The notes under the pieces are model-generated. The model saw only the letters and a list, made by a program, of their open reading frames with translations. It had not been told where the DNA came from and did not search any database. This document shows, one piece after another, positions 1 to 20,699 of a stretch of 64,000 nt of DNA. Where the stretch lies: assembly GCA_000091205.1 (NCBI GenBank), contig AP006486.2; one strand, written 5' to 3'. Source of the stretch: Cyanidioschyzon merolae (Eukaryota). How positions within the stretch are numbered: position 1 is the first letter of the stretch; each line of letters starts with the position of its first letter. The translations under genes were made by a program, and so were the position numbers.

Positions 1-28
1 CCCCCATTCCCCCCATTCCCCCAATTTC
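1..28. repeat. Telomere-like C-strand repeats: three degenerate CCCCCCATT units (cccccatt cccccccatt cccccaatt) at the very start of the window
   Basis: Direct reading: 5'-cccccattccccccattcccccaatt-3'. The complement is AATGGGGGG-like, the telomere unit I recall for Cyanidioschyzon merolae. An AT-richer region with no genes follows to 3379. Confidence 0.45.
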
Positions 29-3379: not shown

Positions 3380-6300
3380 TCAAGCAGACACTGAAGCTGA
3401 ACCCGAAACCGATGTTGACGCACTCGCAGACACCGCCGCAGAAGCTGTCGCAGACACCGTCGCAGAGGGTGTCGCTGTCGCAGCCACGGGACTCGGAGTC
3501 GGTGTTGAACTAATCACGACACACTGGTTGTTGATGCACTCCTCGTCAGCGCGGCAGCAACGCATCTTGTTCACAAGGTTATCCGAAGGGATCAGGTACG
3601 TCCCGCATTGCTTCGTAGGGTCCTTGCACACACAAAATGACGGCAGCAGCACCTGTTGTTGTTGCTGCTGTTGTTGCAATTGTTGCTGCTGTTGCAGGTT
3701 ATTGTTGTTGCTGAACGGGATGTACGTGCAGTTCTGCGTCTCGGCGTTGCAGCACTCGGGGCCGCATACAGTATAGCTCGAGTTCGATACGTTGCCCGTC
3801 GTGCCGCTCAGCGAGTTCGACACATACCCGTAGGTCTGGCACACGTACTCGGTTACCGGCTGGAAGCACTCGTTGCCGAGCCCCAGGCAGCAACCAGCCT
3901 CCAGACACTGCTGCGGCGCGTAGCTCGTGCGCTGCGTCCCGTGCTGCTCTCCGTACAGGAGCGTGTTCAGCAGACGCACAAACTGGTTGTTGTTGATGTT
4001 ATTGTTCAGCTGCTGGTTCTGATTCACCGCGTTCGTGCACGGCTGGCGCTCAAACTCGCCCACCGCGCACGTCTTCTCGGGCTGGAAGCAGTACGGGTTC
4101 GACTCAAAGTCGCTCTGCTGCTTGCCGTTCTGCACCCACTGGTTCTGCGCCTGCGAGTCGTAGCAGCAGCCCTGGGCATAGCACGTAAACTGGTTGATAC
4201 CCGCGTTGCCGCACGGCTGGCGCTGCGCTCCCGGTGATGGGCAGACGGGTACTGGTGCCTGCACCTCCTGCAGCGCTACAGAGGCCTGCGGTGCATGGTT
4301 GATGTCGTAGTAGCACCAGGGTGCCAGGATGCCGTTTGCCGTTGGCTGCCAGCAGCATCCCGGTATCGCAGTGCACTCGTCTGGATAGATATAGCTCCAG
4401 CCGCAGGGGACGCGCTGCGTCACTGGAACAGCGCTGCACGCCGCTGAGACGCTCTTCAGGGTGCACGCGTTCGTCTGGGAGTTAAAGCAGCACCCGACTT
4501 GCTCGCAAGCGTCCTGGTTTGTGTACTGGCCCGGAGAACCGCAGATTTCACTCGTGCAAACTGGTGTTGGCGTTGCACTCGGTGTCGGGGTTATAAAAGC
4601 AAGTGTCGCACCAGAGGGTAGAATTGTAGAAACCTGGTCGGTGAAAGTTTGAAGCACACTTTGCAGTTCACTGGCGAGGGATGTGTCTCCTGAGATCGTA
4701 ATCACATAGGTCACAACACTGCCGCCCGCAGTGCGCACCAATGCTCGTTCCAGACGAAGATTGCTCTTGTCTAATGTGGTGGCGAGGCGCCTTGATGTGC
4801 CCGAACCGAAGACCGTGTCGCAGTTATCAGTCACGCTGACATTCACTACCTGGCCCGTGAAGCGAGCCTCGAGATCGTTCTGCAAATCCGTCGCCACGGC
4901 CAAACACAGAGAAAGATTCTGAACGGATATCGCAATCGAGGTGGAAATCGTCGTCGGCACGATTGTTGGTGACGTTGTTGCAGTTGGAGTCATCGTCGGC
5001 GTCATCGTCACTGTCGTTGGAGACGCTGTTACAGTAATCGTTGGCGATGATGTAATTGTCGGAGTTAACGTCGCAGTCAGTGTCGGTGTCGGTGTAGGTG
5101 TCAATGTCGGTGTCGGTGTCGGTGTCGCAGTCGGTGTCGGTGTCGGTGTCGGTGTCGCAGTCGGTGTCGGTGTCGCAGTAGCAGTTGGCGTAATCGTTGG
5201 TGTCAGAGTTGGCGTTGATGTTGGCGTAGGCGTAGAGGTAGGCGTAAAGAACGTTTCACTCAGTGCGAAAACATCATTGAGATAGCCAGGTCCGCTAGTG
5301 ATTGAGTATCCAGATCCGCCAAATAGGATCGGATCGGTCCCACTTGTATTCCAGAAAGCTGGTCCAAAGCGACCACCAGGTACAACACTCGGGTCGGATT
5401 CGTTGAAAACTCCATATACTGAAAGAGCATCCACACTTTGGCTTCCATTGATCCACGCCCACTGACCAAGTGTGATATCAAATACCCACAAATCGTTCAA
5501 ATCACCGGGGCTCTCACGAGTATTCCCATATCCTTCACCACCAAAAAGTAGCAGATTACCCAAAGAATCCACAAAACTTACGCCTGAGTCTCTTGCACCT
5601 GGGTAACTGGTTGGGGAGAAAGCACCGATAGTTCCATAAGATCCTGGATTATTAATAGTGGTATTTCCTGCAATCAAAAGCCATACGGATTGACTTATGT
5701 TGTAGACCCAGAGATCATTCAAGTCCCCTTGCCCTAGTGCTGTGCTGTTTCCGTAGCCATAGCCGCCGAACAACCAGAGATTTCCTTCAAAATCTGTCCA
5801 CGTATGCGAGAAGCCGCGCGCACCTGGAGCATTTGAGTTGCTCGCCACGCCAGGTGCACTATAGTTACCAGGATGGTTAACAAGTTGTGATCCGCCTCTG
5901 TATGCCCATTCGAATGTAACAGGGTTGAATGACCAAAGATCTGACAGCAAATTCCCCGCAATATCCTCACCACCAAACAACCAAAAAAGACCATCCGCAC
6001 CCAGCCAGAATGCCACGCTATCTCGGCCTCCGGGGTTGTAAATTTGACTGTAGATATCCTTCGGTCCATAGACTGGATTGGCGTTAAAAGTATCATTCCC
6101 ACTGAACCACGTCCAGATTCCCGTTTCAGTATCGTACCGCCACATGTCGTTCAGGTCTCCCGCATTACCGTTCACATCAAAGCCGTAGCCACCAAACAAC
6201 CAAAAATGGTGCTCGTCCGTCTGCCAATATGCGCTAGACTGACGGCCGCCGGGTATATTATTTGGGCTGCCTGTGCCGACTGTGCCGTACACTCCTGGTT

Positions 6301-6664
6301 GGTCAAGTTCTGAGGAACCTCCTATCCATGTCCACTCGAGCGAGGTCAGGTTGAATTTCCACAGATCATTAAGGAGGCCCTTTGCTGTGTTTCCGAACCC
6401 GAACCCGCCAAACAAGTACACTACGCTCGAACTTCCGACCCAGGCTGCAGAATAGTAACGGCCTCCTGGAACACTCTCTGGAGACGTCTGGTTCAACGTT
6501 CCATACCTGCCAAAGTTACCAGTACCCGTCTCTCCTCCTATCCAGGTCCAGCTAACCGTACTCACAGGCGACAACGCAGCCACAAGCGACACGGAAAACG
6601 TCGCCGCCAACAATAGACAAACAGCTACTCCCAGGGCACGCGCCAGAGAAAGAGCTCGAAACAT
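3380..6664 (-). CDS. Secreted mosaic protein: N-terminal signal peptide, multi-blade Kelch/galactose-oxidase-type beta-propeller, Thr/Pro-rich mucin-like linker, 3-4 trefoil (P-type)-like Cys-rich modules, poly-Gln and a Ser/Ala/Thr-rich tail
   Basis: 1094-aa uninterrupted ORF. Hydrophobic N-terminus [21 protein letters not shown]. Repeated Kelch-like blades (GGR..S/H, W.FGG.G, LNDLW motifs). A ([12 protein letters not shown])n linker is encoded by a (GTCGGT)n hexamer array. Cys modules such as [34 protein letters not shown] and [20 protein letters not shown] match the trefoil pattern CG..(I/V)...(E/Q)C....GCC(F/W/Y)...PWC. Confidence 0.7.
5075..5180. repeat. Hexanucleotide (GTCGGT)n array inside the Kelch/trefoil CDS, encoding the Thr-Pro linker
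   Basis: Direct reading of ggtgtcggtgtcggtgtcgcagtcggtgtcggtgtcggtgtcggtgtcgcag... Confidence 0.7.
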
Positions 6665-9590
6665 CTCGTTCGACGCTCTCTCAGTCCAATAAATACGGAT
6701 ATTTGTTCTTTCTCGAGTGAATATATCTTCACTATTGTTTTTTCGATATGGTCAACACGAACGTAACCGCCGTGTGTTGTGAAAGCCAAAACAACAACGC
6801 ACAACGTGATAGCGCCAAAAGCGCGGAACGCGCGCGCACTGCAGAGGAATTTGAATTGGGGTCATCATGATGCGATGAAGAATTCACGTTGATGTCGAGA
6901 CTGGAGCGTAACGGACGTAGGGAATTCGGGGTTCATAGTCCGAAATATCCAAGTTGAGAGAGGTACTGAAAGCTATATATAGGCTAGTGGGATTTCATTG
7001 GAATGAGTAACTCCCGAGTACTGCTCCTTCCAGGTGCCAGTCAGCAGGGCTCAGCAGGTCACGGCTCTAGGTAAGAAGGATAGCGAATAACGAACTATCG
7101 GTTGCTGAGGTTCGTCCACCACCCGAAACGCAGAAGTATTCCTAATGCGATTCATCTATCTTAAGTTTTCGCAAGACGATTGTGGTGGAAGTATTCCGTG
7201 TTAGACTTATTGTGTTGCAGTCCTGTTCTCGTGGTGACAGCCAAGCTGAGTAGTTGGGAGGTTTATGTAGGTCTGTACCACTGGTATTTGTCTTAGATAA
7301 GAAACATCGAATAATGAGCTCCTGCGTGTCTATTGCGAGGAAAACTAAGAAATATTTCTCGCGTGGGAAGTGGTCTCTCTTTAGGGACAGGCTGTCGCCG
7401 TTCGAAGTGGAACGCATATACGCGTACCCATGCTTCGACCTTCAACCTACGAAGCGAGAATTCGTAGGTGTTTTCTTCATCTATCCTCGTACGGCCTAAG
7501 CTTGGAGACGTGTGTGTCAACCGCTTCTGGCAAGCCGGACACCAACAAGCATTTTCAAGGCTCGCGCAGACCGGTGGTCCGCGGAGGATGCTAGCCCAAT
7601 CGGAGACTTCATAACGTTTCATCAAGTTTTCCAACAAACGCTCCGTGGCGTCTGTTTTTACATCTGCTACCTGCAATCATTTTTCTGGTGCTACAAATAA
7701 CTCTATCTATTTGAGTGTCAGCCTCACGGTATCGCGCCTACCCCGTGGTTTCTCGGTACAGAACAATACCTAGTCTCGCATCTCGGAGTGGGAACTTATA
7801 TGGACTTCGGAAAGGCATTGGTCTGAATTGGTCTTTTGACAGCAGCCAAGAAAACGCCCGAAAGTCTGCGGATTCGTTAATCGAGATCGGATCATTCGTA
7901 AATGCTTGGTCGGAGTCGCATAATATGTAACAGCTTTTCCATGACGGTGCCTAGTATCATCAAAAATCATATTCCCGGTGGCGTCGTTCCGTGACTATTT
8001 TGGTGAGTAGCGGGCAATTTAGAGGTACCATATATACCTTTGGCGACCCGATAGTTTCCCCAGCAAGATCGAGGAAAGTCTCCTCATAGTTATCGAACCA
8101 ACAGCTAGACAGAGCGACCAAGTCGACAGACCAATTCTATCTCGAATTTCCGCCTCGCTCAGGAATTTATGCCAGCACTTGTCTCGCAGTGTGCTTTTCA
8201 TAAAGCACGTTCCCCGGAACGCATCCTATTTTCTTGAACTCTCTACCCAGATACCTCGCCCTGGATTCCCTGTTCTCTTTTATCGACGTACTCGCGCGAG
8301 ATACGCTCACCGGCTCTGTCAGTGAGCGAAGCCATGATCCATTCCTTGGGCCTCTCACACTGATCTGTGTCCGATAGGCTCGCTGCTACCGCTTCATCAG
8401 AGGTTATTTGGAGCTTCTCGCATGTGAAGGCGCACTCGGGAGTCAAGAGCTTCTTCATGCTACGATTCAGCCTCTGGAATATTATACGCAATCTAACCAG
8501 CAGACTGCTTGAGTGGTTCAGCTGCTTGCCCTGCTGTATTCTGTGTGGAACGAAAACAGAATCTCAGTCCGTTCTTGCACCATGATCTTCGCAAGTTGTC
8601 CCCGGCAGTAGATGATGAATGCCTGAAACATCCTTCTATTTAACAATTTACCTTCTCGGGAGAATCTGCCTCGATCCGTTTTAATCTGTAGAGATGGTGC
8701 ACCCTGCTTCCTCGTCATAATGGCGGTGTTCAAGCACGACCCACGTTGCTCTTCTTCAGCACTGCTTCCACTGTACACACGGGGAAGGCGCCGACGGACT
8801 TCATGCCACCTTCGTAGTCCAGCGCCTTCTCTCTCGACGCTCGGTTGCTGTCGTTCGGCTTTTGCAATCTACTGATATATCCTGAAACAGCATCCGGATG
8901 CTAAGACGCACTGGTGCAAAACAATGGACTACTCCGGAACTCGTAGTACCTGTCAATACTCGGAAGTTGCCGCTCATTTTTTCCATTGTACCCATGCAGC
9001 CATTTCTTTCCCCCGGAGACTCTGGTGCGATACATCCGTCTTACGCCCGGGAAGGATCACCGAATGCATGTCATATTATGCACCAGATCCCAAAATGAGC
9101 TCCAACAATAGATATCCCCAATTCTGAACACTTTATTCTGTATTCCAGGACAAATGCGCTCTCTGCAGTTGCAGCAAATGCGCTCTACTCCGATGACGAC
9201 CGCTTCCAGCATTCTCTGGTGCATTCAGTGCGTAGCAGTTCATAGCTATCACTAGATTAATCACTATTGCATTACGCATTATGACTTACGAAGCATTGTT
9301 CGCTCTTCAAAGCAGGAGGAGCGCCATCTCGCTCGCTCAATATCCGATCGGAACTGCCGCAGGCCACCTCCTTGGTACACCGTTGCTCCCACATCTGTCC
9401 TTGAAGCAGCGGTCTGCGCTCCGAAGGCGCATCTCATTTTCATCACTAATAAACCTTACACAGGGGCCAAGACAGTCGACTTGAGGCCTCGCCTCCGTAA
9501 CGCCTGGTCGATCAGATTAAGACTCAGTTCGTAAAGCTGATCTGCCTTGTCGATTGTGTACGTTGGTTCAATAACCTGCGGTTTCGTCTT

Positions 9591-10515
9591 CTATCCCCCA
9601 TCCGTATATTTGCCACGCCACTGATAATACGAGTCCGAGTCCGGGAACTGTCCCTGGGGCGCCACTTCGGCTACGCGGCGGCCGGCCTCATCATTCGGAA
9701 CGTATTGCCGAGTGATATACTTCTGAAGAATCGGGATGAATACGTAGCGGAACCAGCCAAGCTTTTCGCGGTAGAGGTTGCTATCGGCGACAGATCCCGG
9801 GAAAATCGCCACAGAGGTCACCCCGTCGCGGCCGTATCGATCACTGAGCGCCTTCATTGTCAACACGTTCTCGGCTTTGGCGTCTTTGTAGGCTTTTGTG
9901 GGCTCAAACGGACCACTGCCTACCATGCCAGTCGTCTGCGGATCAAGCCCCGCGCCTAGACCAGACAAATCGCCGAGGCGAGCCCGCGGGGGATCGTTCC
10001 CGGCAGCGAATTCGGCGAGTGGGTCTGAGTCGTCGGAACACAATGTGCCCGCGCGATACTTTCAGCTTCGGCAACAGCTCCCGACATAGAAGCAAATGGC
10101 TCAGATGGCATACCTGCATGGTTTCCTCGATGCCGTCCACCGTGAAACGCGGTTTCTTGTCCCGCGGATGCCAGATTGCGGCATTGCAGATCAGGGCATC
10201 CAGGTGATCGACGCGCGCCACACTTGACAGCTCTCTCACAAACTTTAGTACAGAGGCGAAATCAGCCTGACCACAACGGAGCACGGTATAGGCGTCCTTT
10301 AGAAGGTTCACGCTGTTTGCTGCGCGCTCCGCCCGGTCGACGTCACGACATGCCATGACGATGTGCCAGATGCACTTGTTGATCAGAGCGTGAGCTGCAT
10401 ACAGACCGACTCCAGAGCACGCGCCCGTGATCACGGCGATCTGCGACTGTTTCGGGCCATTACGAAGATGCAGCGCGTGGTGCCGGCGCGCTACAGGCGA
10501 ACGCTGCATTACCAA
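9591..10515 (-). pseudogene. POR: Light-dependent protochlorophyllide oxidoreductase (LPOR, SDR family). The body is split over two overlapping ORFs in different frames (9943..10515 and 9591..10043), i.e. a frameshift. The upstream presequence frame also contains an in-frame TAA.
   Basis: The N-part IAVITGACSGVGLYAA...WHIVMACRD...LICNAAIW matches plant POR (VITGASSGLGL...WHVIMACRD...LVCNAAVY). The C-part PRARLGDLSGLGAGL...AYKDAKAENVLTM...GVTSVAIFPGSVADSNLYREK...FIPILQKYITRQYVPNDEAGRRVAEV matches PKANLGDLRGLAGGL...AYKDSKVCNMLTM...[25 protein letters not shown]. The switch between frames falls within about 2 codons, which leaves no room for an intron. Confidence 0.6.
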
Positions 10516-12189
10516 AGGAAGAGGACGCTGGCGGTGGTGACGATGTCCAGCTGCGAAGCAACCGTCACGAGCGGTACCCAGTGCGAACGGTGCTCTGCGT
10601 ACAGCAGGTGAGCGAACTACTCTTTAGCCCTGGTACAGCGGATCAGAGACAAACATGCCTTGTACTTTCTTGGGTTAGGTCGTCTCCGTGCGAAAGCTGC
10701 CGATCACGTCATGGGCTAGAATCGATCGCGTAAGTGTGCGTATCCAGTCAAAAACCTGTTTTGCGTAGCTGCACGAGTGATCTTCCGTCGAGTGGTGCAG
10801 ATGCCAACCTCAATCTCCGTAGACTGTCTAACTTGGAGCACAACCCGCACAAGCGCTCAACGTCAATCTCAGAAACTAGGTTAAACTCGCAGTTTTCCGA
10901 GCAACAATCTCGTCAGTACTAGTCGCAATGCGTTCCGCAACGTTGAGTTCAAAGATCACAATGATCGTTGAGGAACGTCGCTGCAGCTCACCGATGAATA
11001 ACGTAGCGGAGGTACAAGAGACTAACATCCGGTGGTAGTTTTTTTGGAAGCGCCTGCACGTCAGTTGGACACGTTACGTCTAGGGCGGGTCACTCGCCAC
11101 TACTGTACACGGCCGACGACGATGTTTTTCTTTTCAAGGGCATGTGTAGTTGGTTGTGTCGCTTCCGGGCTCGCTGTACTGGTTAGGCTCTTGAATCTAA
11201 TCTTATAGAGTAGATCAGAATACAGTATGTGCTTTTGTCGGATGCCTCGATCGTTCAAGGCGAGATGCAATGCTCAAACGTCGTGGCAGATATAGATGCA
11301 ATATGTTAGCTACGCCTCTGCCAAGATCACCGGATCAATTGACGTAGCGGGGACCATAAGTTAGACAACGAAGCAGCATGGCAATGACCTGAGCTCTCAT
11401 CAGTACCAGCCCCTGACGCAGGAAAGAAGCACAATTCAGGCCAGTTCTTTATTCCGGTGTCCGTGCAGGATGCATAGCAAGCCTAGGGAATAAACTTATA
11501 TCCGTGTTCGAGAACACTACCGTACCTATTACGGTTACGACCAATACAACTGAAGAAACTCTTATTGAGTAGAGTGTTGCATATCTTATCCACACAAGTG
11601 CAAGCCGCAGAGGAAGATACGCGTGTGATAGAAGCATCGCGGGGTATCGTTCCAGGCCCCTGCATCCCCTTGTCTGGCAGGGCAGTGCTGCGATGGGCAG
11701 CAGCGTCGGCACCAGCGACATAACCTATAGCAAGAGTGCATTCTACGGGAGTTTCCAGTCTACGATACCTTATGTTTTGCGGCAGTGCGATGCGAACACG
11801 CATGTGCCAAGGCGGGGTGTCGGACACGTGTCCTTCATCGATCGGAGTAGCGTTTCGCGCAGTGCACGCATCGCGCTCGGTGAGTGCACCTCGGGGATCA
11901 GACAGACATGAGACACGACGCGCGTGCCGCTGTTCAAGGGAAACGTGATCTCGATCAGAAGCGTGTTGTTCAGCTGTAAAAAGTTGGATTTCCGTTGAGG
12001 ACATAGCAAAGTAGAGTTTTCCTTTCGTTTTTGTTCCGAAATTAAACCAGACTAGTCAAGTGTTTTTTCGCTGTATATAACAGAAGCGTTCAAAGAGCGT
12101 TCTTTTCAAAAAAAGGAAAGCTATCACAGAGCAAGTCCACGATCCTGGAGGCCCAGGTTCGCAGGCTGCCAGAAAAAGAACATAAAACG

Positions 12190-14330
12190 GTGTCGAGTCC
12201 CGAAGAAAAGGAAGAGAAGAAGGACCGAAAGCAGGAGGCCCTACGTCGAAGGCGGCAAGAAAGACGACTGTACGACGAGAATATGGTGAAAACTTTCTTT
12301 CTTGGACATATCAAGGATCCCTGTAGGGAAAAGTTGCGAGACGCCATTGAAAAACGTGTTGACTCGTACTCGAAGAGTATTGTAAAGACGTTTTCAGGAC
12401 TAATGCATTTGGCGAGGGAGATGTATCGCGACGTAACGCAAATGGAAACAGTCGATGTTCCTGACGCGTTCTTCGATAGGACATGTATTCGATACCTGAT
12501 GCTTGGCACAGCGGAAGCGCGGAGGGAAACTCAGCTAGTGTATGCCCTCCACGAAAAGTTCGCGGAATTCCGCTCCGAGGCTACCCGACACAGGGGTGAA
12601 TGTTGTATTTACGAATACATGGCAATGGGGTGCCTCACGAATGTGAGGAGCCTTAAGATCTTAAACGTCGTTTCGTTCATGATACGCGTTCTCTTTGCGC
12701 TCTACCCGTGCCTTTTTCGGGAAGGGATTCGAGGAACCATCGATGGTATCAAGAACGATTCCCAGCATGAACGGGATATGAACTTTGTTGAGAAGAGGAC
12801 ATCACGGTGGAGAAAGAACGAGGCTTCTGTTCTCCGCTCTACCATTTAAAGGCATCGTTCGGTCTTGGAGCTTGGCACCCCAAGAGAAACACTTTCAGAT
12901 ATGAGAAAAGAAGAGAGATGTTCCCCCCCTCATCCTGCCTCACTTCATGTTATTTGACCGAGAACTCCGACGGAAGGCCCAAATAGAGCTAAGTATGGAA
13001 AAAATGACGGGTGGGAGAAACGGCATTGAAGTGGTTTTCCAGAAGCGCTTCAATTTCGTTTTTTATGCGAGTTCAAGTCGCATTTTGTGATTATCGACTG
13101 TAGAGGCCTTTTACGACTTCATGAAGGAGATCTATTTAGAGCTCGATGTAATAAACCGAGAGGTCATCGGCGAAAACAGGGACACCGACTAGAAGATTAT
13201 TTTCGATATCACGTGTCTCGAACCGGCCAAAAAAGGTATTCCAGCGGACAATCGATTTCGATATTGTGTACATAAGTGTACATCAAATGCTGTTGCAGGC
13301 ACTTCATCCTATCCCGTCTTCGTTATCGCCCTTGCCGAAGCACGAAAACAAGAAGACGGGCCGCGAAACGCATAGTCCCCATGAAAACGGCTTTGTCGTC
13401 GGCCCTAGCCCCTGAAACACGAGTATCATGACCTTTGCTGTACCCAAGCGTGAGTGCGATGGCACTGACCGAAACTCACGTCAGAAAGACAGCAGGATTT
13501 TGGGGATCTCACGAGAGAAATACTACCAAGAAGCGGGAATCATGAATGCAAGCAAGAAAATTGAGACATGAAATGCAGGAATGAAGGATCTCCTGGAATC
13601 TTTGAGCGAGGTGACGAGCCGAGAAGCGGATTTTGAAGCTTCTCGGAAATTCATAGAAGGTTCGCGTTGCTCATTAGGAGGTACTGTGGAAAGAATATAC
13701 AATGCCCCGGTGGGCTCGAATGCGAATGAATCTGGACTGTGGTAAGCAGCGGGCATTTGCGAATTGTTTCAGCCAGTTGTGCCCTGGAGGAGGATCAGAG
13801 TCAGATGCTCATTGTAGCGTATGGGGCAGGGCGCTGGAAGACCCAAAAAAGGTTTACGCCAGCTCCATCGACAAGAACATATAAGGAGTGCGCAAGGCGA
13901 TTCGTTACGATATAAGTAGATGAGCTTCGAATGACCTATACACACCATAAAGTGGGGTGCACACTTCAGAGAGTGGAGATGGAAAAGTGCCAGCGGAGCC
14001 CTGGGGAAACAGCAAAGTACGGACAGCTGACGAAAGAGCAAATGGAAAGAAGAGCCAAGTTCGTGGACTAGTTGCATTAGTGAGTACAACCCGCAACGGC
14101 ACGAAACAGATAGAGTTTGGGGATCGAGACTTTAACGCCGCCATCAATGGAAGGAAATGCGCGGTGCTGGAGAAAAGACCTCCAAAGTGGACACGAGGGA
14201 TCTTTATTGGACAACCTCTCAGAGTCGAACTATATGAGAAAAAAATTGGAAGCAGTCGTGGGTGGCCGGTCGAGAAAGACTGAGATGCGTTTGCACGTCA
14301 GCTGGAGACTTCTTGTCTAGGGCGCCGGTC
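12190..14330 (+). mobile_element. Degraded TnpB/Fanzor-like (IS200/IS605 OrfB family) element relic. A KR-rich N-terminal ORF (12190..12849) is followed by broken frames and a C-terminal RuvC-III-like motif at 14119..14182.
   Basis: ORF 13957..14283 encodes ...KQIEFGDRDFNAAINGRKCAVLEKRP, matching the TnpB/Fanzor RuvC-III signature (D.NAA.NI..RG). A second paralogous relic lies at 49959..50960 with nucleotide identity 24/25 over cgagacNttaacgccgccatcaat. The region is an AT-richer island and the usual CxxC...CxxC zinc finger is absent, suggesting decay. Confidence 0.4.
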
Positions 14331-14439
14331 ACCACTACTGTACACCGCTGGCGGCTACAACGTTATTCTTTTCAAAGACGTTTGTTTCCAGGGATGAATA
14401 CTGAGCGTCCACAGCAGCACACCTCTCCTTCGAACGCGT

Positions 14440-17400
14440 CTAGTTCATGAAACCGACACAACCCGGCTCGCCGCATAGACATGGGATTTTCATCGCATTG
14501 TCTACGTCGAACATGTAGTTGTAGGTCAGCTCCTCGCCGCGTTTAATCGCTCGAGCGCTGCGAATAACAATCACATCCTGCTTCGGTTCGTCGCTGATTC
14601 GCAGGATTTCGCTGTAGCAATTCGGACGACAAGAATGGTTAATATAGCGTGCGACGCTCCCAATCATTGTCGCATCAATCACCCAATCAGCATCTATACG
14701 AAACATGTAGCACCCAATGCCACGGCGCTCGTAGTGGCGCTCCCGAACGTCGGCCACTGGTGAGGCAATCCGCTCTCCAGCGTACTCAACGATCATCTGA
14801 TCGGCTTGGAGGTCACAGCGCGCAAACAAACCGAACCCGTGGATTCGAGAGCGCAACGGAACACAGTACTTGCGGTGTTCGAGCTGCATCTGTCGATACA
14901 GCCGACGATCAGTTGCCGTTGCAGAGACTACTCGCCAGGCGTCTCGCCTTGGAGGCACACGATCCTGCTCTGGACGTGATCGCAGTGCGCTGCACGCCCG
15001 CTCTGCAGACCCCGGGATATCGGATGCAGCTGATCGCTGTGCAAGGAGCGGGTCATATGCTGCTCCCGCTAACGCACGCTCAAACACTTCCAGGGATCGA
15101 TGCACAGGTGCAAGCTTACTCCATTTTGACTCGTTACTCGGGCGCAAGTACAGGGAACAACGTGCTGCGCCCGCGGATCGCGCTGTCGGGGATGCACCTC
15201 CGACGTCGTGGTCCGGAGAGGTATCCGCGGGCACCGACGCCAACATGCTCGTGGCTAGGTGCTGCACCAGCACCGGCACAGGGCAAAAGAAGCGCTCCGC
15301 AAGTGCCTGACGTTCTTCTGTCGATCGTTCAGCGATGCACTTGGTGAAAAGATGCGTCAAGCGCGCCGGAAGACGCGCTGCCCACAACCGCAGCACACGG
15401 GATATCATCTGGTGCCATAGCGCAGTGATGCACACGCCACTTAACCGATCGTGCGGTGCATCCAGAGCGCACAGCGAGTACCGCGGCTCGTGCGCTACGT
15501 CCGCTGTGCAACTGATAAAGTAAAGCGTTCGTTCAAAGGGTCGGATCATACTCCAAAAGCGCCGCGCTAGGTAACAATCTGGCGGCAGTCGCCACTGAGC
15601 TTCTGTCGATTCCAGCGATGTGCAGTCCAGCGCACCGTAATCGAGCAGTGTCCAGGCACCGACTCGCAATGCTGGTCTCGCATTTAGCGACAAACCGCGT
15701 ACATCCGACGGCAAAGAGTGACCCATACTCGAAAAGGGAAAACTCCACCCCGAGGGTGCAAGTCCAGCTGTCGCCTCGCGACCAAGCAGCGAGCGATGCT
15801 TCCAACACCAGCACAGGCTGCGATGATCGGAGCATTCCCACATAGCATCAGCACCAGCAGCGTTAGCATGTGTCGCTACACAGCGTACGTGAAAGACTTG
15901 GGTACAGCCCAAAAAAGAGCAGAACACAGAGGCACCCGTACGACGACACACAGAACACTTTCTGGACAAGGCAGCTTGTATCGTGCGAGAAAGGCCGGCT
16001 CCCGTTTGCGTCGACAGCGCCAAACAGCCCATGTGAATCCAGCGCAGGGTGCTTTCGGAGAGTCGCAATGGCACCAGACATCCGAGCTGCGCGCTTTCAC
16101 CTCGCTCGGGGCAAGCACATAGCGCACAACGCCGACAATCGGGAACCGCACAGAGACGCGACCACACTAGGTGCTCTGCTTGTAACGCATCTGGTGTAGC
16201 ATGTGGCGCTTGAACCCCAAACGAGGCGGATACACGCTGGCCCAGCGGCCGGCAGACAGTGACTTCAGGCACTGGGTCACGAGTTCCGTATTGGCTTAGT
16301 GAGGTATCGTTCCCCATCAAACACACCGTGTTCTCCTGCACTCCAGTTTCTGCTTCACAATTCGCAAGCATCATGTGCGCATCGATATACACCGAGTTTT
16401 GCGAATGAAGATGTTCTGCTTCGAAGGAGTTTTCCTGCTTCATCACGAGCGGCGTCCGATCGGTGCCCTCTATCCGCGTACCTGAGGCCAAGTGCGAAGC
16501 GAACGCTCCGTCTTGCACGCTCGTCAAAGCGCACGCGCCCAATGGTAGCTGTGCCTCGCACGATACATCCCGCAACCGCGTTCCCGCGAGGCAGTCTCGT
16601 AAAGGGTCTGCGCACTCAGATTCCATAGCGTCCGCATTGCACGCTAGAAGAGGTGCCTCAGAGACACGCCCCTGGCCTGAGGAGCTGCTCACCTTCGGCG
16701 AACGTGAGCAAGCAGGGCCCGTTGCCGCCAGCGTACCGGGAACATGCTGTCGCTTGACCTGATCGCCAGGAAGCGTACTGGTTGCGTTCGAGGTTGCTGC
16801 TGCTGCTGCTGCTGCTGCTGCTTCACAATCACCGCAAAGCAGCAGTGGCATAGCACCGCCGTGGCCGCTATCCAGCCGCCGACCGCAGACAACGCACGGT
16901 ACGGACGAGAGCGTCAGCAGCCACGGAGGCTCCTGAACGGAACTTGGCTCACCACGCTGCAGAACTTGCATCGAATCCCGTTTCCATGCATTCGATTCTG
17001 AGGCATCCTGTCCCGTGTTCTTTGACGCAACGGCTGCATAGGTGCCCGCCTCCTGTTCGACACCGGCTCTGTACGAATTCCTCGGCAAAGGCAAAGCACG
17101 TCCAGGGGTATCCACCTCCGGATAAGGAACGCGCTCCGAGCCTCCGCCTCCGGTGATGCGTCGAGAAGCGGCAAAAGAAGCAGCGCCGGCAGCAGCGAAC
17201 GACACAGGTGGCCTGCGCTTCACAGCGCCAAACGCGGAGGAGTCAGGTACGGCCTCGTTATCCATACAGGGCGCTTGCATCGAGTGATCGACCTCCAGAG
17301 GCACCTCCGAGTCGTTATGCTCGGTTCCTGTGTTCCATAGAACCTGTTCGGACCGTTCTATACTGGATTCGGTTGGTGTTCCTTGACGATCCGCAGGGTG

Positions 17401-20172
17401 ACAGGATGATTCTGCTTCAGGTACAGATGGCAGTGGTATGGAGACGGCGCAGCTGGTACAATTCGGGATCACGCGAATCGGACCCAAGTCCAGCAGATGC
17501 AGCCGACCTGAAGACGACTCGTACTGCTGCTCTTGATGCTGGCATTCCGCGTGATACGCCTCGCCACAAAGCCAGCAAAAGAGCGCCGATGCGCCTGATT
17601 CGTCCACGGTGCCATGACACAGCGCGCAAACATCCCGCTCGAGCGGAATCAGAATTCGGCAAGGAATCAGCGGATCGACTTGAGGTTGAGGAGGTACTTC
17701 CCAGTCGAGCACACCCATCACCTGGGCGTTAGTCTGGTACTCGAGTTGTGCGCGCTCATCGTGGACAACGGAGCGATCATGGCAGCCTGAGTCGATGCGT
17801 TCGCTTGGCGTTCGACACGGTGCAACGAACAGACTACCCGGCTTGCCCGGGACGTTACTTTCGGAAGCAGTCACCTGAGAGCCTGCAGCTGGCGCCGTCT
17901 CTGTGGCAGCGGCCGCGGACAGCGACATCTGGACAAGACTGGTACCCTCGGATGGAGTAGATACTGTCATCAGAGCGTCTGCAGTGACAGCGGATACTCG
18001 CTTTGCCCTCTTGGTCCCATCCGGGCGTGAATGCAACCGAGAGCGTTCGAGTGCCTCCAGCGTGCGCTCCGCAAACGTTACCCAGGACAATGGCTCACAG
18101 TCACCGAACTGAAGCTCTCGTGTGAGCTCCCACAAGCGGTAATTCTCCTGCTCCGTAGTGGCCTCCGAGTGGTGACGACGCTTCCTTTGCCTGCCGGTCA
18201 CCGAATTGCGCTTACCAAGTGCATCATCACCGCGAAACTGAACCTGGGCAACAACACTGCCTCGAGGTGTCTGCAGTGCAGTATCCTGCGGAACCTGCCG
18301 GGAAGCGCGCTCCCCGTTTGCTGATTCCCCTCTGCCGAAACGTACACCGCCGTGCTGCTGCAGTTTTCTCGAAAAGTTTAGCCGCATCACAGCGCTTACC
18401 TGGGACGCTCCAGTCTCCTGCCCCACTGAGTGGCCGCCTTGTCTAGAGGAGAGCGCGTTTTTGGAGTCCCCGGAAGCGCCGCCACCAGCACCGGAAGGAC
18501 CGGTGTGCGTCGCCACCTCACGATCGTACACCTCGACGGGTACCGAACAACGCGAGACATTCCTCGACTGCCCTGTACGAGCGCCGTAACTCGGTTCAAC
18601 GGTACACTCGGACGCGCATGAGGCTCGAAGCTCCGCAAAATCCTTCACAGCGCTTTCGTTCGATGCAGCGGGACTGCTGGTCAGCGCAGATGCCAAGTGA
18701 GCTCGCTCCGGCGATGTTACAGCATCTTGTTGCTGCAAGCGTCGACGAGAAGCTGTATTGACAAGGTGCGTATCCGGACAAGCGTCCGGACGGCGTTTCC
18801 TGGACTTTGTGGGTCGTCTCGCTCGCACAGGGACCGTTTCAATCGCCAAAAATGGACTGTGGAGCTGGAGATCAGAGCGCTTACCACCATCTCCACCACT
18901 GCGAGGTTGTTTGTCGGGATTGTATGTGGCCAGAGGGCGAAGTCGCTCGCCCTGGTGTTCCATGTTCGCAGGCGAGACTTCCGGGACACGCTGGACAAGA
19001 GCGGCGTCAGTTTGTATTTTCTTCATAATCAAGCGCTTTCTCTTGGTGCTCGCATCGTCACAAGTGTTTTGCTGCATCAGCGGCGTCTGTGAATACCAAC
19101 TAGCAGGCGCAGCTAGCGAGCCAATGATATGAGAAACCTCCCGGCATACGCGAGACTTGCGCTGCGGGTGCCTCTTCCATGCAGGTCCACGGTTTGCTGG
19201 AGACGGCACTGCTGGCGTCGCGGTTGCCAGTCCGGTATGGCGGTGGCGGTATTGCTTCCGCCCGGTTGCTGTTTGAACAGCGTGCCCGGTATCCATGCCG
19301 TGCTCATTGTACACCTGCAAAGCGTCACGGCTATCGTTGTGCTCGATTTGCTTCCAATCGCGGGCACCAGACTGTCGTCCGCGACTTGTCCATGAATGCG
19401 TAGACACTGCTTGAGCATTCTCGACACCTGCTGCTCCGTTGCCGCGCTTCAAGCGCCGCTGCGACGGCGCTCTACGAGCGCTTCGCTCAGAAGACGCTTT
19501 GGTTGATTCTGGGGGTGCACTTGCCGTTTCATCCCGACGTTTTGCAGCCAGATGCTGTCGATCCTTTGCAGTGGACACGCTCGCATCAATGCATCCATTC
19601 GGGGATGCGTCTCTTCGAACAGCACGGCCCTTGACAGCCTCTAACTGAACCAGCAGATTAGCGCTGGCCGGCACATCGAGCGTGGCAAGCTCCGAGCCCC
19701 TAAAAAAGCCACATTCCTCAGCGTCCTTCCGGTGAAGACAACAAAAAACCTGTCGTCGTCGCTTACACACAGCAGCACCAACTTTCAGTGCACAGCGCAG
19801 GTGGTAGTACGTCCAGCAGGTTCTCGGACTGCGGTAAGCGCAGGTGATGGTCCCACCAGGTTGTCCACAAACACTGCAGCGAATCGAGTTGCCCCGACGC
19901 ACGACAGAGCCCACCAGGAGCTCATCGATTTCGTTTCGACCCTGACACTCGGCACTGAAGCGCACACACTCTTCATGTACATAAATAGGTTTCTTTGCTG
20001 GTGGTTTGGGTTTCAGTGGCCCCAGTAACTTACCTTCTATACCGCTTGCGTCCTGGTCTAGGCCGCACAGTGCACAGCGTACGCTATCCGCAACGTGCGC
20101 TCCATCCTTCCGTCGACGAGGATTCGCCGGTAACAACTCAGACTTTGACCTTGGACAGAGGCGTCGTGGCAT
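14440..20172 (-). CDS. Histone-lysine N-methyltransferase of the KMT2 (SET1/MLL/Trithorax-like) type: several PHD and extended-PHD fingers, and a C-terminal SET plus post-SET domain
   Basis: The C-terminus ...GIGCYMFRIDADWVIDATMIGSVARYINHSCRPNCYSEI...RGEELTYNYMFD...IPCLCGEPGCVGFMN carries the SET motifs NHSC and ELTYNY and a post-SET CxCxxxxC. PHD-like fingers include CALCHGTVDESGASALFCWLCGEAYHAEC and CSVCGQPGGTITCAYRSPRTCWTYYHLRCA. The ORF is 1938 aa with the track start at TTG 20256; the first in-frame ATG is at 20172. It contains a (GCT)n/poly-Gln tract near 16794-16822. Confidence 0.8.
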   Translation of the reverse strand: MPRRLCPRSKSELLPANPRRRKDGAHVADSVRCALCGLDQDASGIEGKLLGPLKPKPPAKKPIYVHEECVRFSAECQGRNEIDELLVGSVVRRGNSIRCSVCGQPGGTITCAYRSPRTCWTYYHLRCALKVGAAVCKRRRQVFCCLHRKDAEECGFFRGSELATLDVPASANLLVQLEAVKGRAVRRDASPNGCIDASVSTAKDRQHLAAKRRDETASAPPESTKASSERSARRAPSQRRLKRGNGAAGVENAQAVSTHSWTSRGRQSGARDWKQIEHNDSRDALQVYNEHGMDTGHAVQTATGRKQYRHRHTGLATATPAVPSPANRGPAWKRHPQRKSRVCREVSHIIGSLAAPASWYSQTPLMQQNTCDDASTKRKRLIMKKIQTDAALVQRVPEVSPANMEHQGERLRPLATYNPDKQPRSGGDGGKRSDLQLHSPFLAIETVPVRARRPTKSRKRRPDACPDTHLVNTASRRRLQQQDAVTSPERAHLASALTSSPAASNESAVKDFAELRASCASECTVEPSYGARTGQSRNVSRCSVPVEVYDREVATHTGPSGAGGGASGDSKNALSSRQGGHSVGQETGASQVSAVMRLNFSRKLQQHGGVRFGRGESANGERASRQVPQDTALQTPRGSVVAQVQFRGDDALGKRNSVTGRQRKRRHHSEATTEQENYRLWELTRELQFGDCEPLSWVTFAERTLEALERSRLHSRPDGTKRAKRVSAVTADALMTVSTPSEGTSLVQMSLSAAAATETAPAAGSQVTASESNVPGKPGSLFVAPCRTPSERIDSGCHDRSVVHDERAQLEYQTNAQVMGVLDWEVPPQPQVDPLIPCRILIPLERDVCALCHGTVDESGASALFCWLCGEAYHAECQHQEQQYESSSGRLHLLDLGPIRVIPNCTSCAVSIPLPSVPEAESSCHPADRQGTPTESSIERSEQVLWNTGTEHNDSEVPLEVDHSMQAPCMDNEAVPDSSAFGAVKRRPPVSFAAAGAASFAASRRITGGGGSERVPYPEVDTPGRALPLPRNSYRAGVEQEAGTYAAVASKNTGQDASESNAWKRDSMQVLQRGEPSSVQEPPWLLTLSSVPCVVCGRRLDSGHGGAMPLLLCGDCEAAAAAAAAATSNATSTLPGDQVKRQHVPGTLAATGPACSRSPKVSSSSGQGRVSEAPLLACNADAMESECADPLRDCLAGTRLRDVSCEAQLPLGACALTSVQDGAFASHLASGTRIEGTDRTPLVMKQENSFEAEHLHSQNSVYIDAHMMLANCEAETGVQENTVCLMGNDTSLSQYGTRDPVPEVTVCRPLGQRVSASFGVQAPHATPDALQAEHLVWSRLCAVPDCRRCALCACPERGESAQLGCLVPLRLSESTLRWIHMGCLALSTQTGAGLSRTIQAALSRKCSVCRRTGASVFCSFLGCTQVFHVRCVATHANAAGADAMWECSDHRSLCWCWKHRSLLGREATAGLAPSGWSFPFSSMGHSLPSDVRGLSLNARPALRVGAWTLLDYGALDCTSLESTEAQWRLPPDCYLARRFWSMIRPFERTLYFISCTADVAHEPRYSLCALDAPHDRLSGVCITALWHQMISRVLRLWAARLPARLTHLFTKCIAERSTEERQALAERFFCPVPVLVQHLATSMLASVPADTSPDHDVGGASPTARSAGAARCSLYLRPSNESKWSKLAPVHRSLEVFERALAGAAYDPLLAQRSAASDIPGSAERACSALRSRPEQDRVPPRRDAWRVVSATATDRRLYRQMQLEHRKYCVPLRSRIHGFGLFARCDLQADQMIVEYAGERIASPVADVRERHYERRGIGCYMFRIDADWVIDATMIGSVARYINHSCRPNCYSEILRISDEPKQDVIVIRSARAIKRGEELTYNYMFDVDNAMKIPCLCGEPGCVGFMN

Positions 20173-20699
20173 CGACGCCAGCACAAGTGCTAGCGTCAAT
20201 TGCGGACTTCGCTTCCTCCCGACACGTTTAGGTACAAGTAGCCAACTACCTGACAACAGCGAGACCTAGAGTTTAACGAAAACGCAGCACACGTCAACTC
20301 CAGTGGACTCAACTGCGCTCTAAGTACCGAGCGATACCAACAGACCTGCACTTGATCAGGTCCTCCCTGTATACCACCAAAGTCTGGAGGTTTTCCCCAG
20401 ACCAAACGACACCACGACAACCCGTAGAGGCGAATAGCGCGCGCAAAGCCTTTCTTGCCGCTTCGTACTCGGCAGTGCGGCGCCAAAAGGGTACGCGCTG
20501 AACCTGCAACTGCGTCGCCTTTGCTGGGCAGCGATATATGCGCTTTGCCCAGCTTTTGGCACTGGACAGGTCTCCGGGCACGCTGTTTTGCAGTTCAAGG
20601 GCCAACATCGGCACGGACGCTGTGCAACAGCGGCACTTGGGGCCTAACGCTGTCCTCCCGTGACTGGCACGACCCCGGACTGGTTTGCGCTTTTCGAAG

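Follow-up and report, generated by a model that had tools for sequence, protein, structure and literature searches.

A chromosome-terminal Kelch-plus-trefoil gene of Cyanidioschyzon merolae and the predicted secreted mosaic protein that it encodes

A map by Nozaki et al. [quoted passage not shown] Cho et al. (2023) later described the duplicated genes most prevalent in Cyanidiales subtelomeres as a Kelch (K) domain joined to a trefoil or a Hint domain via a Thr/Pro/Ala linker; 12-24 copies were reported per genome, with annotated signal peptides, a K domain 'identified as galactose oxidase' and a function given as unknown (PMC9812998). C. merolae has 15 TFF-like genes, 13 of which are mainly expressed in the diploid, cell-walled phase, and the K+Hint/Hog genes are mostly expressed in the haploid, wall-less cells (Plant Cell 2026, PMC13353863). 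Several 'trefoil factor' genes are also induced in a nickel-stress transcriptome (PMC12112623). Here we report the analysis of a gene combining Kelch and trefoil parts (K+T), located at 3380-6664 on the minus strand of a 64,000-nucleotide stretch of C. merolae contig AP006486.2, hereafter the window.

Judged by its domain order and its relatives, the gene is one copy of this already known subtelomeric K+T family. An earlier reading of the same DNA, made without database searches and called below the sequence-only reading, had considered the architecture unusual and had placed it in a wall-less unicellular alga. The association of Kelch and trefoil parts stands, but the novelty does not, as the K+T family is published and is also found in Cyanidiococcus and Cyanidium; most TFF-like genes are expressed predominantly in walled diploid cells. 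The interpretation that we favour, with a probability of about 0.7, is that this copy encodes a secreted protein in which a stalk would space a Kelch head from a trefoil block serving as wall or matrix anchor, and that its cassettes are shuffled by subtelomeric recombination. All features are collected in Table 1.

The claim of an intronless-type gene was borne out by a single uninterrupted open reading frame (ORF), which starts with ATG, encodes 1094 amino acids (aa) followed by a stop codon and contains no internal stop. Two orthologues, CCYA04G1438 of Cyanidiococcus (71% full-length identity) and CDCA06G1732 of Cyanidium (48%), are collinear with it, have the same architecture and keep every cysteine invariant; compared to them, the window copy adds an insert of about 125 aa and has a longer linker. 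The exact 1094-aa protein was absent from the protein collections searched, and no C. merolae proteins were among the matches. The sequence-only reading had left unmentioned the insert, two further cysteine modules (M5 and M6), the Ser/Ala-rich tail and the telomere repeat at positions 1-26.

Table 1. Position and basis of assignment of the features of the K+T gene and of the chromosome end in the window
Feature	Residues (aa)	Position	Strand	Basis
Complete K+T coding sequence		3380..6664	-	ORF reading; full-length identity 71% to CCYA04G1438, 48% to CDCA06G1732
Signal-peptide-like N-terminus	1-30	6575..6664	-	Kyte-Doolittle hydrophobic core 2.5; V-A-A end
Predicted six-bladed Kelch beta-propeller	35-470	5255..6562	-	Pfam Kelch families; six LFGG / W-x-W repeats
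Thr/Pro(/Ala) mucin-like stalk	471-572	4949..5254	-	composition and Tandem Repeats Finder (TRF); includes period-6 array 5076-5175
Orphan non-repetitive insert, ~125 aa, with Cys 587 and Cys 615	573-697	4574..4948	-	lies between Thr/Pro stalk and T1
T1, truncated P-domain-like module	703-734	4463..4558	-	C-x4-C-x11-C-x4-CC-x7-C; short first and last loops; Trefoil 19.8 bits, under cut-off
T2, canonical trefoil/P-type module	743-786	4307..4438	-	C-x10-C-x9-C-x5-CC-x12-C; RVPCG, GCCW, PWCY; Trefoil 45.8 bits
T3, trefoil module with long third loop	808-861	4082..4243	-	C-x9-C-x9-C-x4-CC-x24-C; QPCG, GCCY, PYCF; Trefoil 31.6 bits
T4, degenerate trefoil-like module	866-935	3860..4069	-	Asn/Gln-rich insertion of 43 aa between Cys2 and Cys3; without Pfam match; Cys kept in orthologues
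M5, five-Cys module, non-trefoil	942-981	3722..3841	-	no Pfam match; Cys invariant in three genera
Asn/Gln homopolymer tract	986-1004	3653..3709	-	TRF and composition; length variable between orthologues
M6, seven-Cys C-terminal module, non-trefoil	1011-1049	3518..3634	-	no Pfam match; strongly conserved in all relatives
Ser/Ala/Thr/Val-rich tail	1050-1094	3383..3517	-	12/24-nt repeats; lacking in Cyanidium orthologue
Telomere repeat (CCCCCCATT)n, reverse complement of AATGGGGGG		1..26		sequence reading

The window opens with CCCCCATTCCCCCCATTCCCCCAATT. In reverse complement this corresponds to AATGGGGGG, the telomere repeat present at all 40 C. merolae chromosome ends (PMC1955436). The 3′ end of the gene lies 3.35 kb from this repeat. 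On this evidence, the K+T gene is the outermost gene at the left end of the chromosome. Both orthologues are terminal genes on their contigs as well, where they adjoin AATGGGGGG-type repeats. The Cyanidiococcus contig (at the end of L001) and the Cyanidium contig (at the start of L002) terminate in repeats of the AATGGGGG(G) type, so that the telomere repeat, considered in 2007 to be unique to C. merolae, is common to the Cyanidiales.

The propeller is made of six repeats of about 72 aa, each with the motifs W-x-W..G, PG-x-YG, PG-x-R, LFGG and LNDLW, and a six-bladed Kelch propeller is assigned from these repeats. Pfam matches exceeding the curated cut-offs were obtained with PF24681 (96.5 bits), Kelch_3 (63.1), Kelch_4 (60.9), Kelch_6 (40.5) and Kelch_1 (34.3). 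A match to some non-Kelch family, which the sequence-only reading had named as evidence against itself, did not appear, all Pfam matches of the propeller being to Kelch families. The 'galactose-oxidase-like' part of that reading fared worse. No galactose oxidase chain of the PDB was matched by the whole protein or by a four-sequence propeller profile, and a Pfam scan of the protein gave no match to the galactose-oxidase C-terminal domain PF09118. Moreover, the propeller is free of cysteine, the first Cys after the signal peptide being residue 587, which argues against a Tyr-Cys cofactor. Galactose oxidase has seven blades, compared to six sequence repeats here. On these comparisons, the label derives from how Pfam describes Kelch_3 and Kelch_4 and from nothing else. 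Identity with NanM (N-acetylneuraminate epimerase) was likewise considered and rejected, with 24.9 bits for NF010730 against a cut-off of 416, and 20.2 bits for PF24996 against 45.

The best solved relatives of the propeller are the Kelch domain of a dynein heavy chain, muskelin, KLHDC3 and LZTR1, at E values of 5e-11 or weaker. Among bacteria, by contrast, multi-propeller Kelch proteins (Bdellovibrio, Chitinophagales, Fulvivirga, Terracidiphilus and others) share the blade motif and 35-42% identity over all six blades, for example 42% over 455 aa (E 5e-96). These relatives come from a list of the best 120 matches by summed bit score, a ranking that favours long multi-propeller bacterial proteins over single-propeller eukaryotic ones, which may be missing from it even at similar identity; a bacterial origin of the propeller is therefore hinted at by these identities and not established.

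In the cysteine-rich block, residues 698-1050 contain 36 Cys, all of which are conserved in the orthologues. For the PF00088 Trefoil model, whose curated gathering threshold is 21 bits, the whole protein scored 47.2 bits over three stretches; the modules were also scanned singly. The cysteine pattern taken as diagnostic for a trefoil was approximately C-x9-10-C-x9-C-x4-CC-x10-12-C, with CG after Cys2, GCC[FW] and PWC[FY]; it is found in T2 and T3, and in part in T1 and T4. T2 alone gave an E value of 5e-12 against Pfam Trefoil, all motif residues matching beyond the cysteines, and aligned in the PDB to TFF3 (E 3e-5), TFF1 and the P-domain of maltase-glucoamylase (MGAM). T1 and T2 jointly align to tandem TFF2 in the PDB search, and domain 1 of TFF2 is matched by the T3 part of the profile. 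In hhalign comparisons, T1 aligns to T2 (E 5e-5) and to T3 (E 3e-6), and T4 aligns to T3 at E 0.007 over only 14 columns around C3..CC. The possibility that M5 and M6 are diverged trefoils was rejected, the hhalign probability being at most 6% for M5 against every other module and below 1% for M6. We conclude from these profiles that the block is composed of two canonical trefoil modules (T2, T3), one truncated relative (T1), one doubtful module (T4) and two other conserved cysteine modules. Of the three to four trefoils announced by the sequence-only reading, two are thus clear, and its warning that the modules might fail trefoil models did not materialise, since they exceed the cut-off and align to TFF1, TFF2, TFF3 and MGAM. 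For the three-loop fold with 1-5, 2-4 and 3-6 disulfides, modelling was only suggestive. An AlphaFold2 (AF2) model of the trefoil block, built from a 7-sequence alignment, had a mean predicted local distance difference test (pLDDT) of 47, T3 being the best modelled part (59-75). A Foldseek search of the PDB with this low-confidence model retrieved five chains, the top three being of TFF3 and TFF1 (TM-score 0.49-0.61 on target, E 0.9-3.4). Concerning the M5-M6 end, a 389-aa JGI metagenome protein (P0131) has a C2 domain and a Gly-rich region joined to it at 91% identity; the join may be an artefact of gene calling or assembly, or else a further fusion of cassettes.

An exhaustive HMMER search with the T1-T3 profile against 1.84 billion representatives gave 182 proteins at E<=1e-3. 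A Pfam scan of 17 of them identified 16 as multi-Trefoil proteins. Named matches came from the cnidarians Clytia and Oculina, the newt Lissotriton, the pipefish Syngnathus, a cluster that contains GH31 enzymes of the neocallimastigomycete fungus Piromyces and whose representative has six trefoils and a CBM26, and an MMETSP protist transcript; the others were unnamed metagenome proteins. Trefoils had been presented in the sequence-only reading as best known from metazoan mucus proteins and GH31 enzymes, and matches do occur in metazoans and in GH31 enzymes. Because the matches are reciprocal and the similarity between algal and known trefoils extends to non-cysteine motif residues, common descent from a widespread eukaryotic P-domain appears a simpler reading than convergence. 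The exception among the 17 scanned proteins, P0136 (963 aa, from an ENA contig of 283 kb), matches the T1-T3 profile over 16 stretches (E 1e-26) and has no Pfam Trefoil match; possibly it represents a divergent P-domain-like repeat type that is as yet unclassified.

The closest described trefoils are the vertebrate TFF1, TFF2 and TFF3 (6V1C, 6V1D, 1PS2, 2PSP). With them, T2 and T3 have in common the spacing of the six Cys and the motifs R-x-x-CG, GCC[FWY] and P[WY]C[FY], and the protein shares a TFF2-like tandem arrangement and a TFF-like association with mucin-type sequence; TFFs are secreted, and secretion is predicted here. However, TFFs are small peptides (59-106 residues for the solved chains), unlike this 1094-aa mosaic, and the third loop of T3 has 24 residues. 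The ligand contacts differ as well. In TFF3, Asp20, the residue preceding Cys2 (Asn in TFF1 and TFF2), and Trp47 provide the only side-chain contacts to GlcNAc-alpha-1,4-Gal; either D20A or W47A abolishes binding (PMC7221086). The algal protein retains the signature of the fold but not this contact: ahead of Cys2, Pro occupies the position in T2, T3 and T4, with Ile instead in T1, the Trp before Cys6 being present in T2 only, with Tyr in T3. If the algal modules are lectins, their ligand probably differs from that of TFF3.

A second described setting for trefoils is the P-domain of GH31 enzymes (MGAM, sucrase-isomaltase (SI), Piromyces), where it is likewise an accessory part of a large extracellular protein; the algal profile matches MGAM, SI and the fungal cluster. 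Unlike these enzymes, the window protein has no GH31 catalytic domain, and the partner of its trefoils is the Kelch propeller. The K+Hint ('hedgehog') protein CCYA03G1141 of Cyanidiococcus (P0064) belongs to the same subtelomeric family and agrees with the window protein in signal peptide, in Thr/Pro stalk and, at 58% identity, in the propeller; a Hint autoprocessing module (PF01079), which we read as starting at 'GAKCFPADA', takes the place of the trefoils. C. merolae itself has 17 Hog genes. Bacterial multi-Kelch surface proteins differ in having many tandem blades with Ig-like or type 9 secretion system (T9SS) sorting domains and neither trefoil nor Hint. With metazoan gel-forming and membrane mucins, the protein has in common a Thr/Pro-rich stalk encoded by short tandem DNA repeats, but it lacks their VWD, CysD and SEA domains.

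Secretion is suggested by the N-terminus, as the sequence-only reading had proposed. MFRALSLAR is followed by a hydrophobic core and by an end reading VAA/LSP, so that by hydropathy the segment looks like a cleavable signal peptide; an equivalent hydrophobic N-terminal segment exists in both orthologues. Beyond it, no segment of transmembrane grade was found on the Kyte-Doolittle scale (maximum 1.59). Nor is the C-terminus hydrophobic, its last 25 residues having a mean of 0.86 on this scale and its 19-residue windows remaining at or below 0.84, too low for a transmembrane or glycosylphosphatidylinositol signal. N-x-S/T sequons are present, 4 of them conserved in all three genera, and 12 of the 15 are shared with at least one orthologue. 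Two repeat-encoded parts were also correctly recognised from the letters. The (TP)n linker corresponds to a period-6 array in TRF, GTCGGT repeated 16.7 times, whose coding strand reads ACA-CCG (Thr-Pro), and linker length differs widely among paralogues. Likewise, a period-3 array at 3654-3710 encodes the poly-Gln tract (aa 990-1004).

The insert that follows the stalk is lacking in the Cyanidiococcus and Cyanidium orthologues and in several metagenome paralogues; besides the window gene, it is known only from Cyanidioschyzon-like metagenome copies. A word-indexed protein search found no relatives at E<=1, and no significant Pfam match was obtained (E>0.1). The single-sequence AF2 model is ferredoxin-like, with a beta-alpha-beta...beta-alpha-beta order (pLDDT 62), and Foldseek returned only generic ferredoxin-like folds, none significant (best E 5e-3). 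A SEA domain was considered on account of the string 'GGSVVT' and rejected, with no Pfam SEA match and no SEA structure among the top 50 of Foldseek. The SEA site motif, G/SVVV, is located in a beta2-beta3 hairpin, and the likeness of the insert to it consists of that string only. A scan of metagenome DNA located the insert on three hot-spring contigs at 93-97% identity; among the carriers, L003 has a K+T gene and L004 a T-only gene. Between the window gene and L004, the insert shows 9 nonsynonymous and 2 synonymous differences (ratio of nonsynonymous to synonymous rates, omega, about 1.6 on these small counts), and T1-T3 show 1 nonsynonymous and 2 synonymous differences (omega 0.14). As far as these comparisons go, the insert is a lineage-restricted stalk element without sign of purifying selection, and the trefoil block is constrained.

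The exchange of cassettes can be followed on the same metagenome contigs. The T-only gene, at 4563-5891 of L004 (contig Ga0080006_1201739), has its own signal peptide, a Thr/Pro stalk, the insert and the trefoil block, and no Kelch propeller. From codon 498 onward its DNA and that of the window gene are 96% identical; the same stalk-insert-trefoil block is preceded by a propeller in L003 and by nothing more than a signal peptide in L004. Such identity despite different heads leads us to conclude that cassettes are exchanged between genes. P0064 of Cyanidiococcus shows the reverse arrangement, in which the shared Kelch head and Thr/Pro stalk are followed by a Hint tail. Base composition is mosaic as well. 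Along the ORF, the G+C content of third codon positions (GC3) starts at about 0.55 (blades 1-3), falls to 0.28-0.40 over blades 5-6 and the stalk, returns to 0.63 with the insert and reaches 0.72-0.90 within the trefoil block, compared to 0.56-0.66 for nine other genes of the window. The same step is seen in the Cyanidiococcus orthologue (L001, 10001-12694), whose GC3 rises from about 0.5 (propeller) to about 0.8 (trefoil block), the background being 0.57-0.67. In the Cyanidium orthologue (L002, 5222-7831), from a GC-rich genome, the trefoil block has values of 0.63-0.85, for the most part close to what is normal for the genome, with somewhat lower values in the propeller. The mosaic and the shared cassettes fit recombination or gene conversion acting on separate cassettes, gene conversion among subtelomeres being one possibility. 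The insert, the 0.28-0.90 GC3 mosaic, the Pro in place of Asp/Asn, the cnidarian, fungal and protist trefoil relatives and the bacterial propeller identity of about 40% are apparently unreported in the K+T literature.

A scheme for the protein can be drawn from these elements. It would enter the secretory pathway, and its stalk would be O-glycosylated, giving a stiff mucin-like spacer. The disulfide-knotted trefoil block, presumably resistant to acid and proteases, would anchor the protein in the cell wall or extracellular matrix, by lectin-like binding or by cross-linking, and the Kelch head, held outward, would offer a second binding surface. Because the TFF-like genes are biased towards the diploid phase and their K+Hint sisters towards the haploid one, a role in assembling or cross-linking wall or matrix at pH 1-2 in diploid cells seems the likeliest. 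Subtelomeric recombination would swap head, stalk and tail cassettes between copies. Several points weigh against this scheme. The phase-specific expression is family-level and does not concern the window copy as such. Localisation, glycosylation and binding of K+T proteins are all predicted from sequence, and so is the three-disulfide trefoil fold, for which the AF2 model and its Foldseek matches had the low confidence reported above. The loss of the sugar-contacting Asp/Asn weakens the lectin analogy. Finally, T-only and K-only genes exist, so the association of head and anchor is not obligatory.

A bolder version of this scheme, which we hold to be possible but unlikely, makes K+T and K+Hint proteins one phase-switched surface-display system, with a propeller that perhaps came from a horizontally acquired bacterial multi-Kelch surface protein. 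Speculatively, Hint autoprocessing and lipid attachment would tie the Kelch head to the membrane of haploid wall-less cells, in diploid walled cells the attachment would be to wall glycans, through the trefoil lectin block, and subtelomeric recombination would swap heads, stalks, the orphan insert included, and tails. The authors of the Plant Cell study proposed instead an acid-protective coat, with trefoils that arose in Cyanidiophyceae by convergence with those of vertebrate TFFs and a shielding of the surface comparable to that of stomach TFF and mucin (PMC13353863). The habitat, at pH 0.05-4 (PMC12112623), and the mucin-like Thr/Pro stalk speak for such a coat. Its convergent, vertebrate-only component is nevertheless unsupported, given the strength of the T2 match to Pfam Trefoil, in which every motif residue agrees, and the retrieval by the algal profile of Trefoil proteins from cnidarians, a neocallimastigomycete fungus and an MMETSP protist. 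As a whole we find this explanation doubtful; an acid-protective role in itself is compatible with the wall or matrix anchor that we propose.

Could the family rather be one of variable surface adhesins or recognition proteins, for cell-cell contact, mating or substrate, in the manner of the subtelomeric FLO/EPA adhesins of yeast? The subtelomeric position in three genera, the differences in stalk length together with cassette exchange between copies, the 9 nonsynonymous against 2 synonymous differences in the insert and an expression that depends on the life-cycle phase speak for this. However, propeller and trefoil blocks are highly conserved rather than hypervariable, the Cyanidium copies exceeding 80% identity (PMC9812998), and the substitutions are too few to demonstrate positive selection, so that we hold this to be possible but unlikely. 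A secreted enzyme, i.e. a propeller of the galactose-oxidase or NanM type acting on wall sugars and targeted by the trefoils, is suggested chiefly by names: 'Galactose oxidase, central domain' for Pfam Kelch_3 and Kelch_4, the identification of the K domain by Cho et al., and the JGI label of N-acetylneuraminate mutarotase on bacterial relatives. With no galactose oxidase match in the PDB, no C-terminal domain, six repeats and a NanM score far under its cut-off, this is very improbable. Even less credit can be given to a decaying, functionless subtelomeric pseudogene. An apparent frameshifted reductase pseudogene does lie 3 kb off in the same subtelomere (see below), and the insert is without purifying selection, but the 3.3-kb frame is intact, the 36 Cys are conserved, the trefoil block has an omega of 0.14, and family members are transcribed and detected by proteomics (PMC12112623, PMC13353863).

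With the family itself already described, the interest that remains lies in its function, the origin of its domains, the orphan insert and the cassette mosaicism. Among the subtelomeric gene families of this alga, an extremophile model, it is the most abundant. C. merolae would offer a simple and genetically tractable system in which to study P-domain and extracellular Kelch binding at pH 1-2, and the K+T family could show how subtelomeric recombination shuffles protein cassettes. The origin of the trefoils bears on a medically important domain, which would belong to a eukaryote-wide P-domain family rather than being a vertebrate-only domain reinvented in algae.

Elsewhere in the window, no paralogues or pseudogene fragments of K, T or H were found, and no K+Hint gene either. 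Inward of the K+T gene, the next large gene encodes a SET/PHD protein (14440-20256). The interval of about 7.8 kb between the two (6665-14439) contains, reductase fragments aside, no ORF longer than 219 aa; the ORF of that size, at 12190-12849 on the plus strand, is without Pfam match. Such a gene-poor interval is unusual for this compact genome, and presumably consists of degenerate subtelomeric sequence. The reductase fragments are two adjoining ORFs in different frames, at 9591-10515 on the minus strand, matching positions 2-131 and 151-282 of the TIGR01289 model of LPOR (protochlorophyllide reductase). They appear to represent either a frameshifted LPOR pseudogene or a sequencing frameshift. 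This element, 3 kb from the K+T gene, corresponds to the 'P' of the C. merolae subtelomere map of Nozaki et al. (2007).

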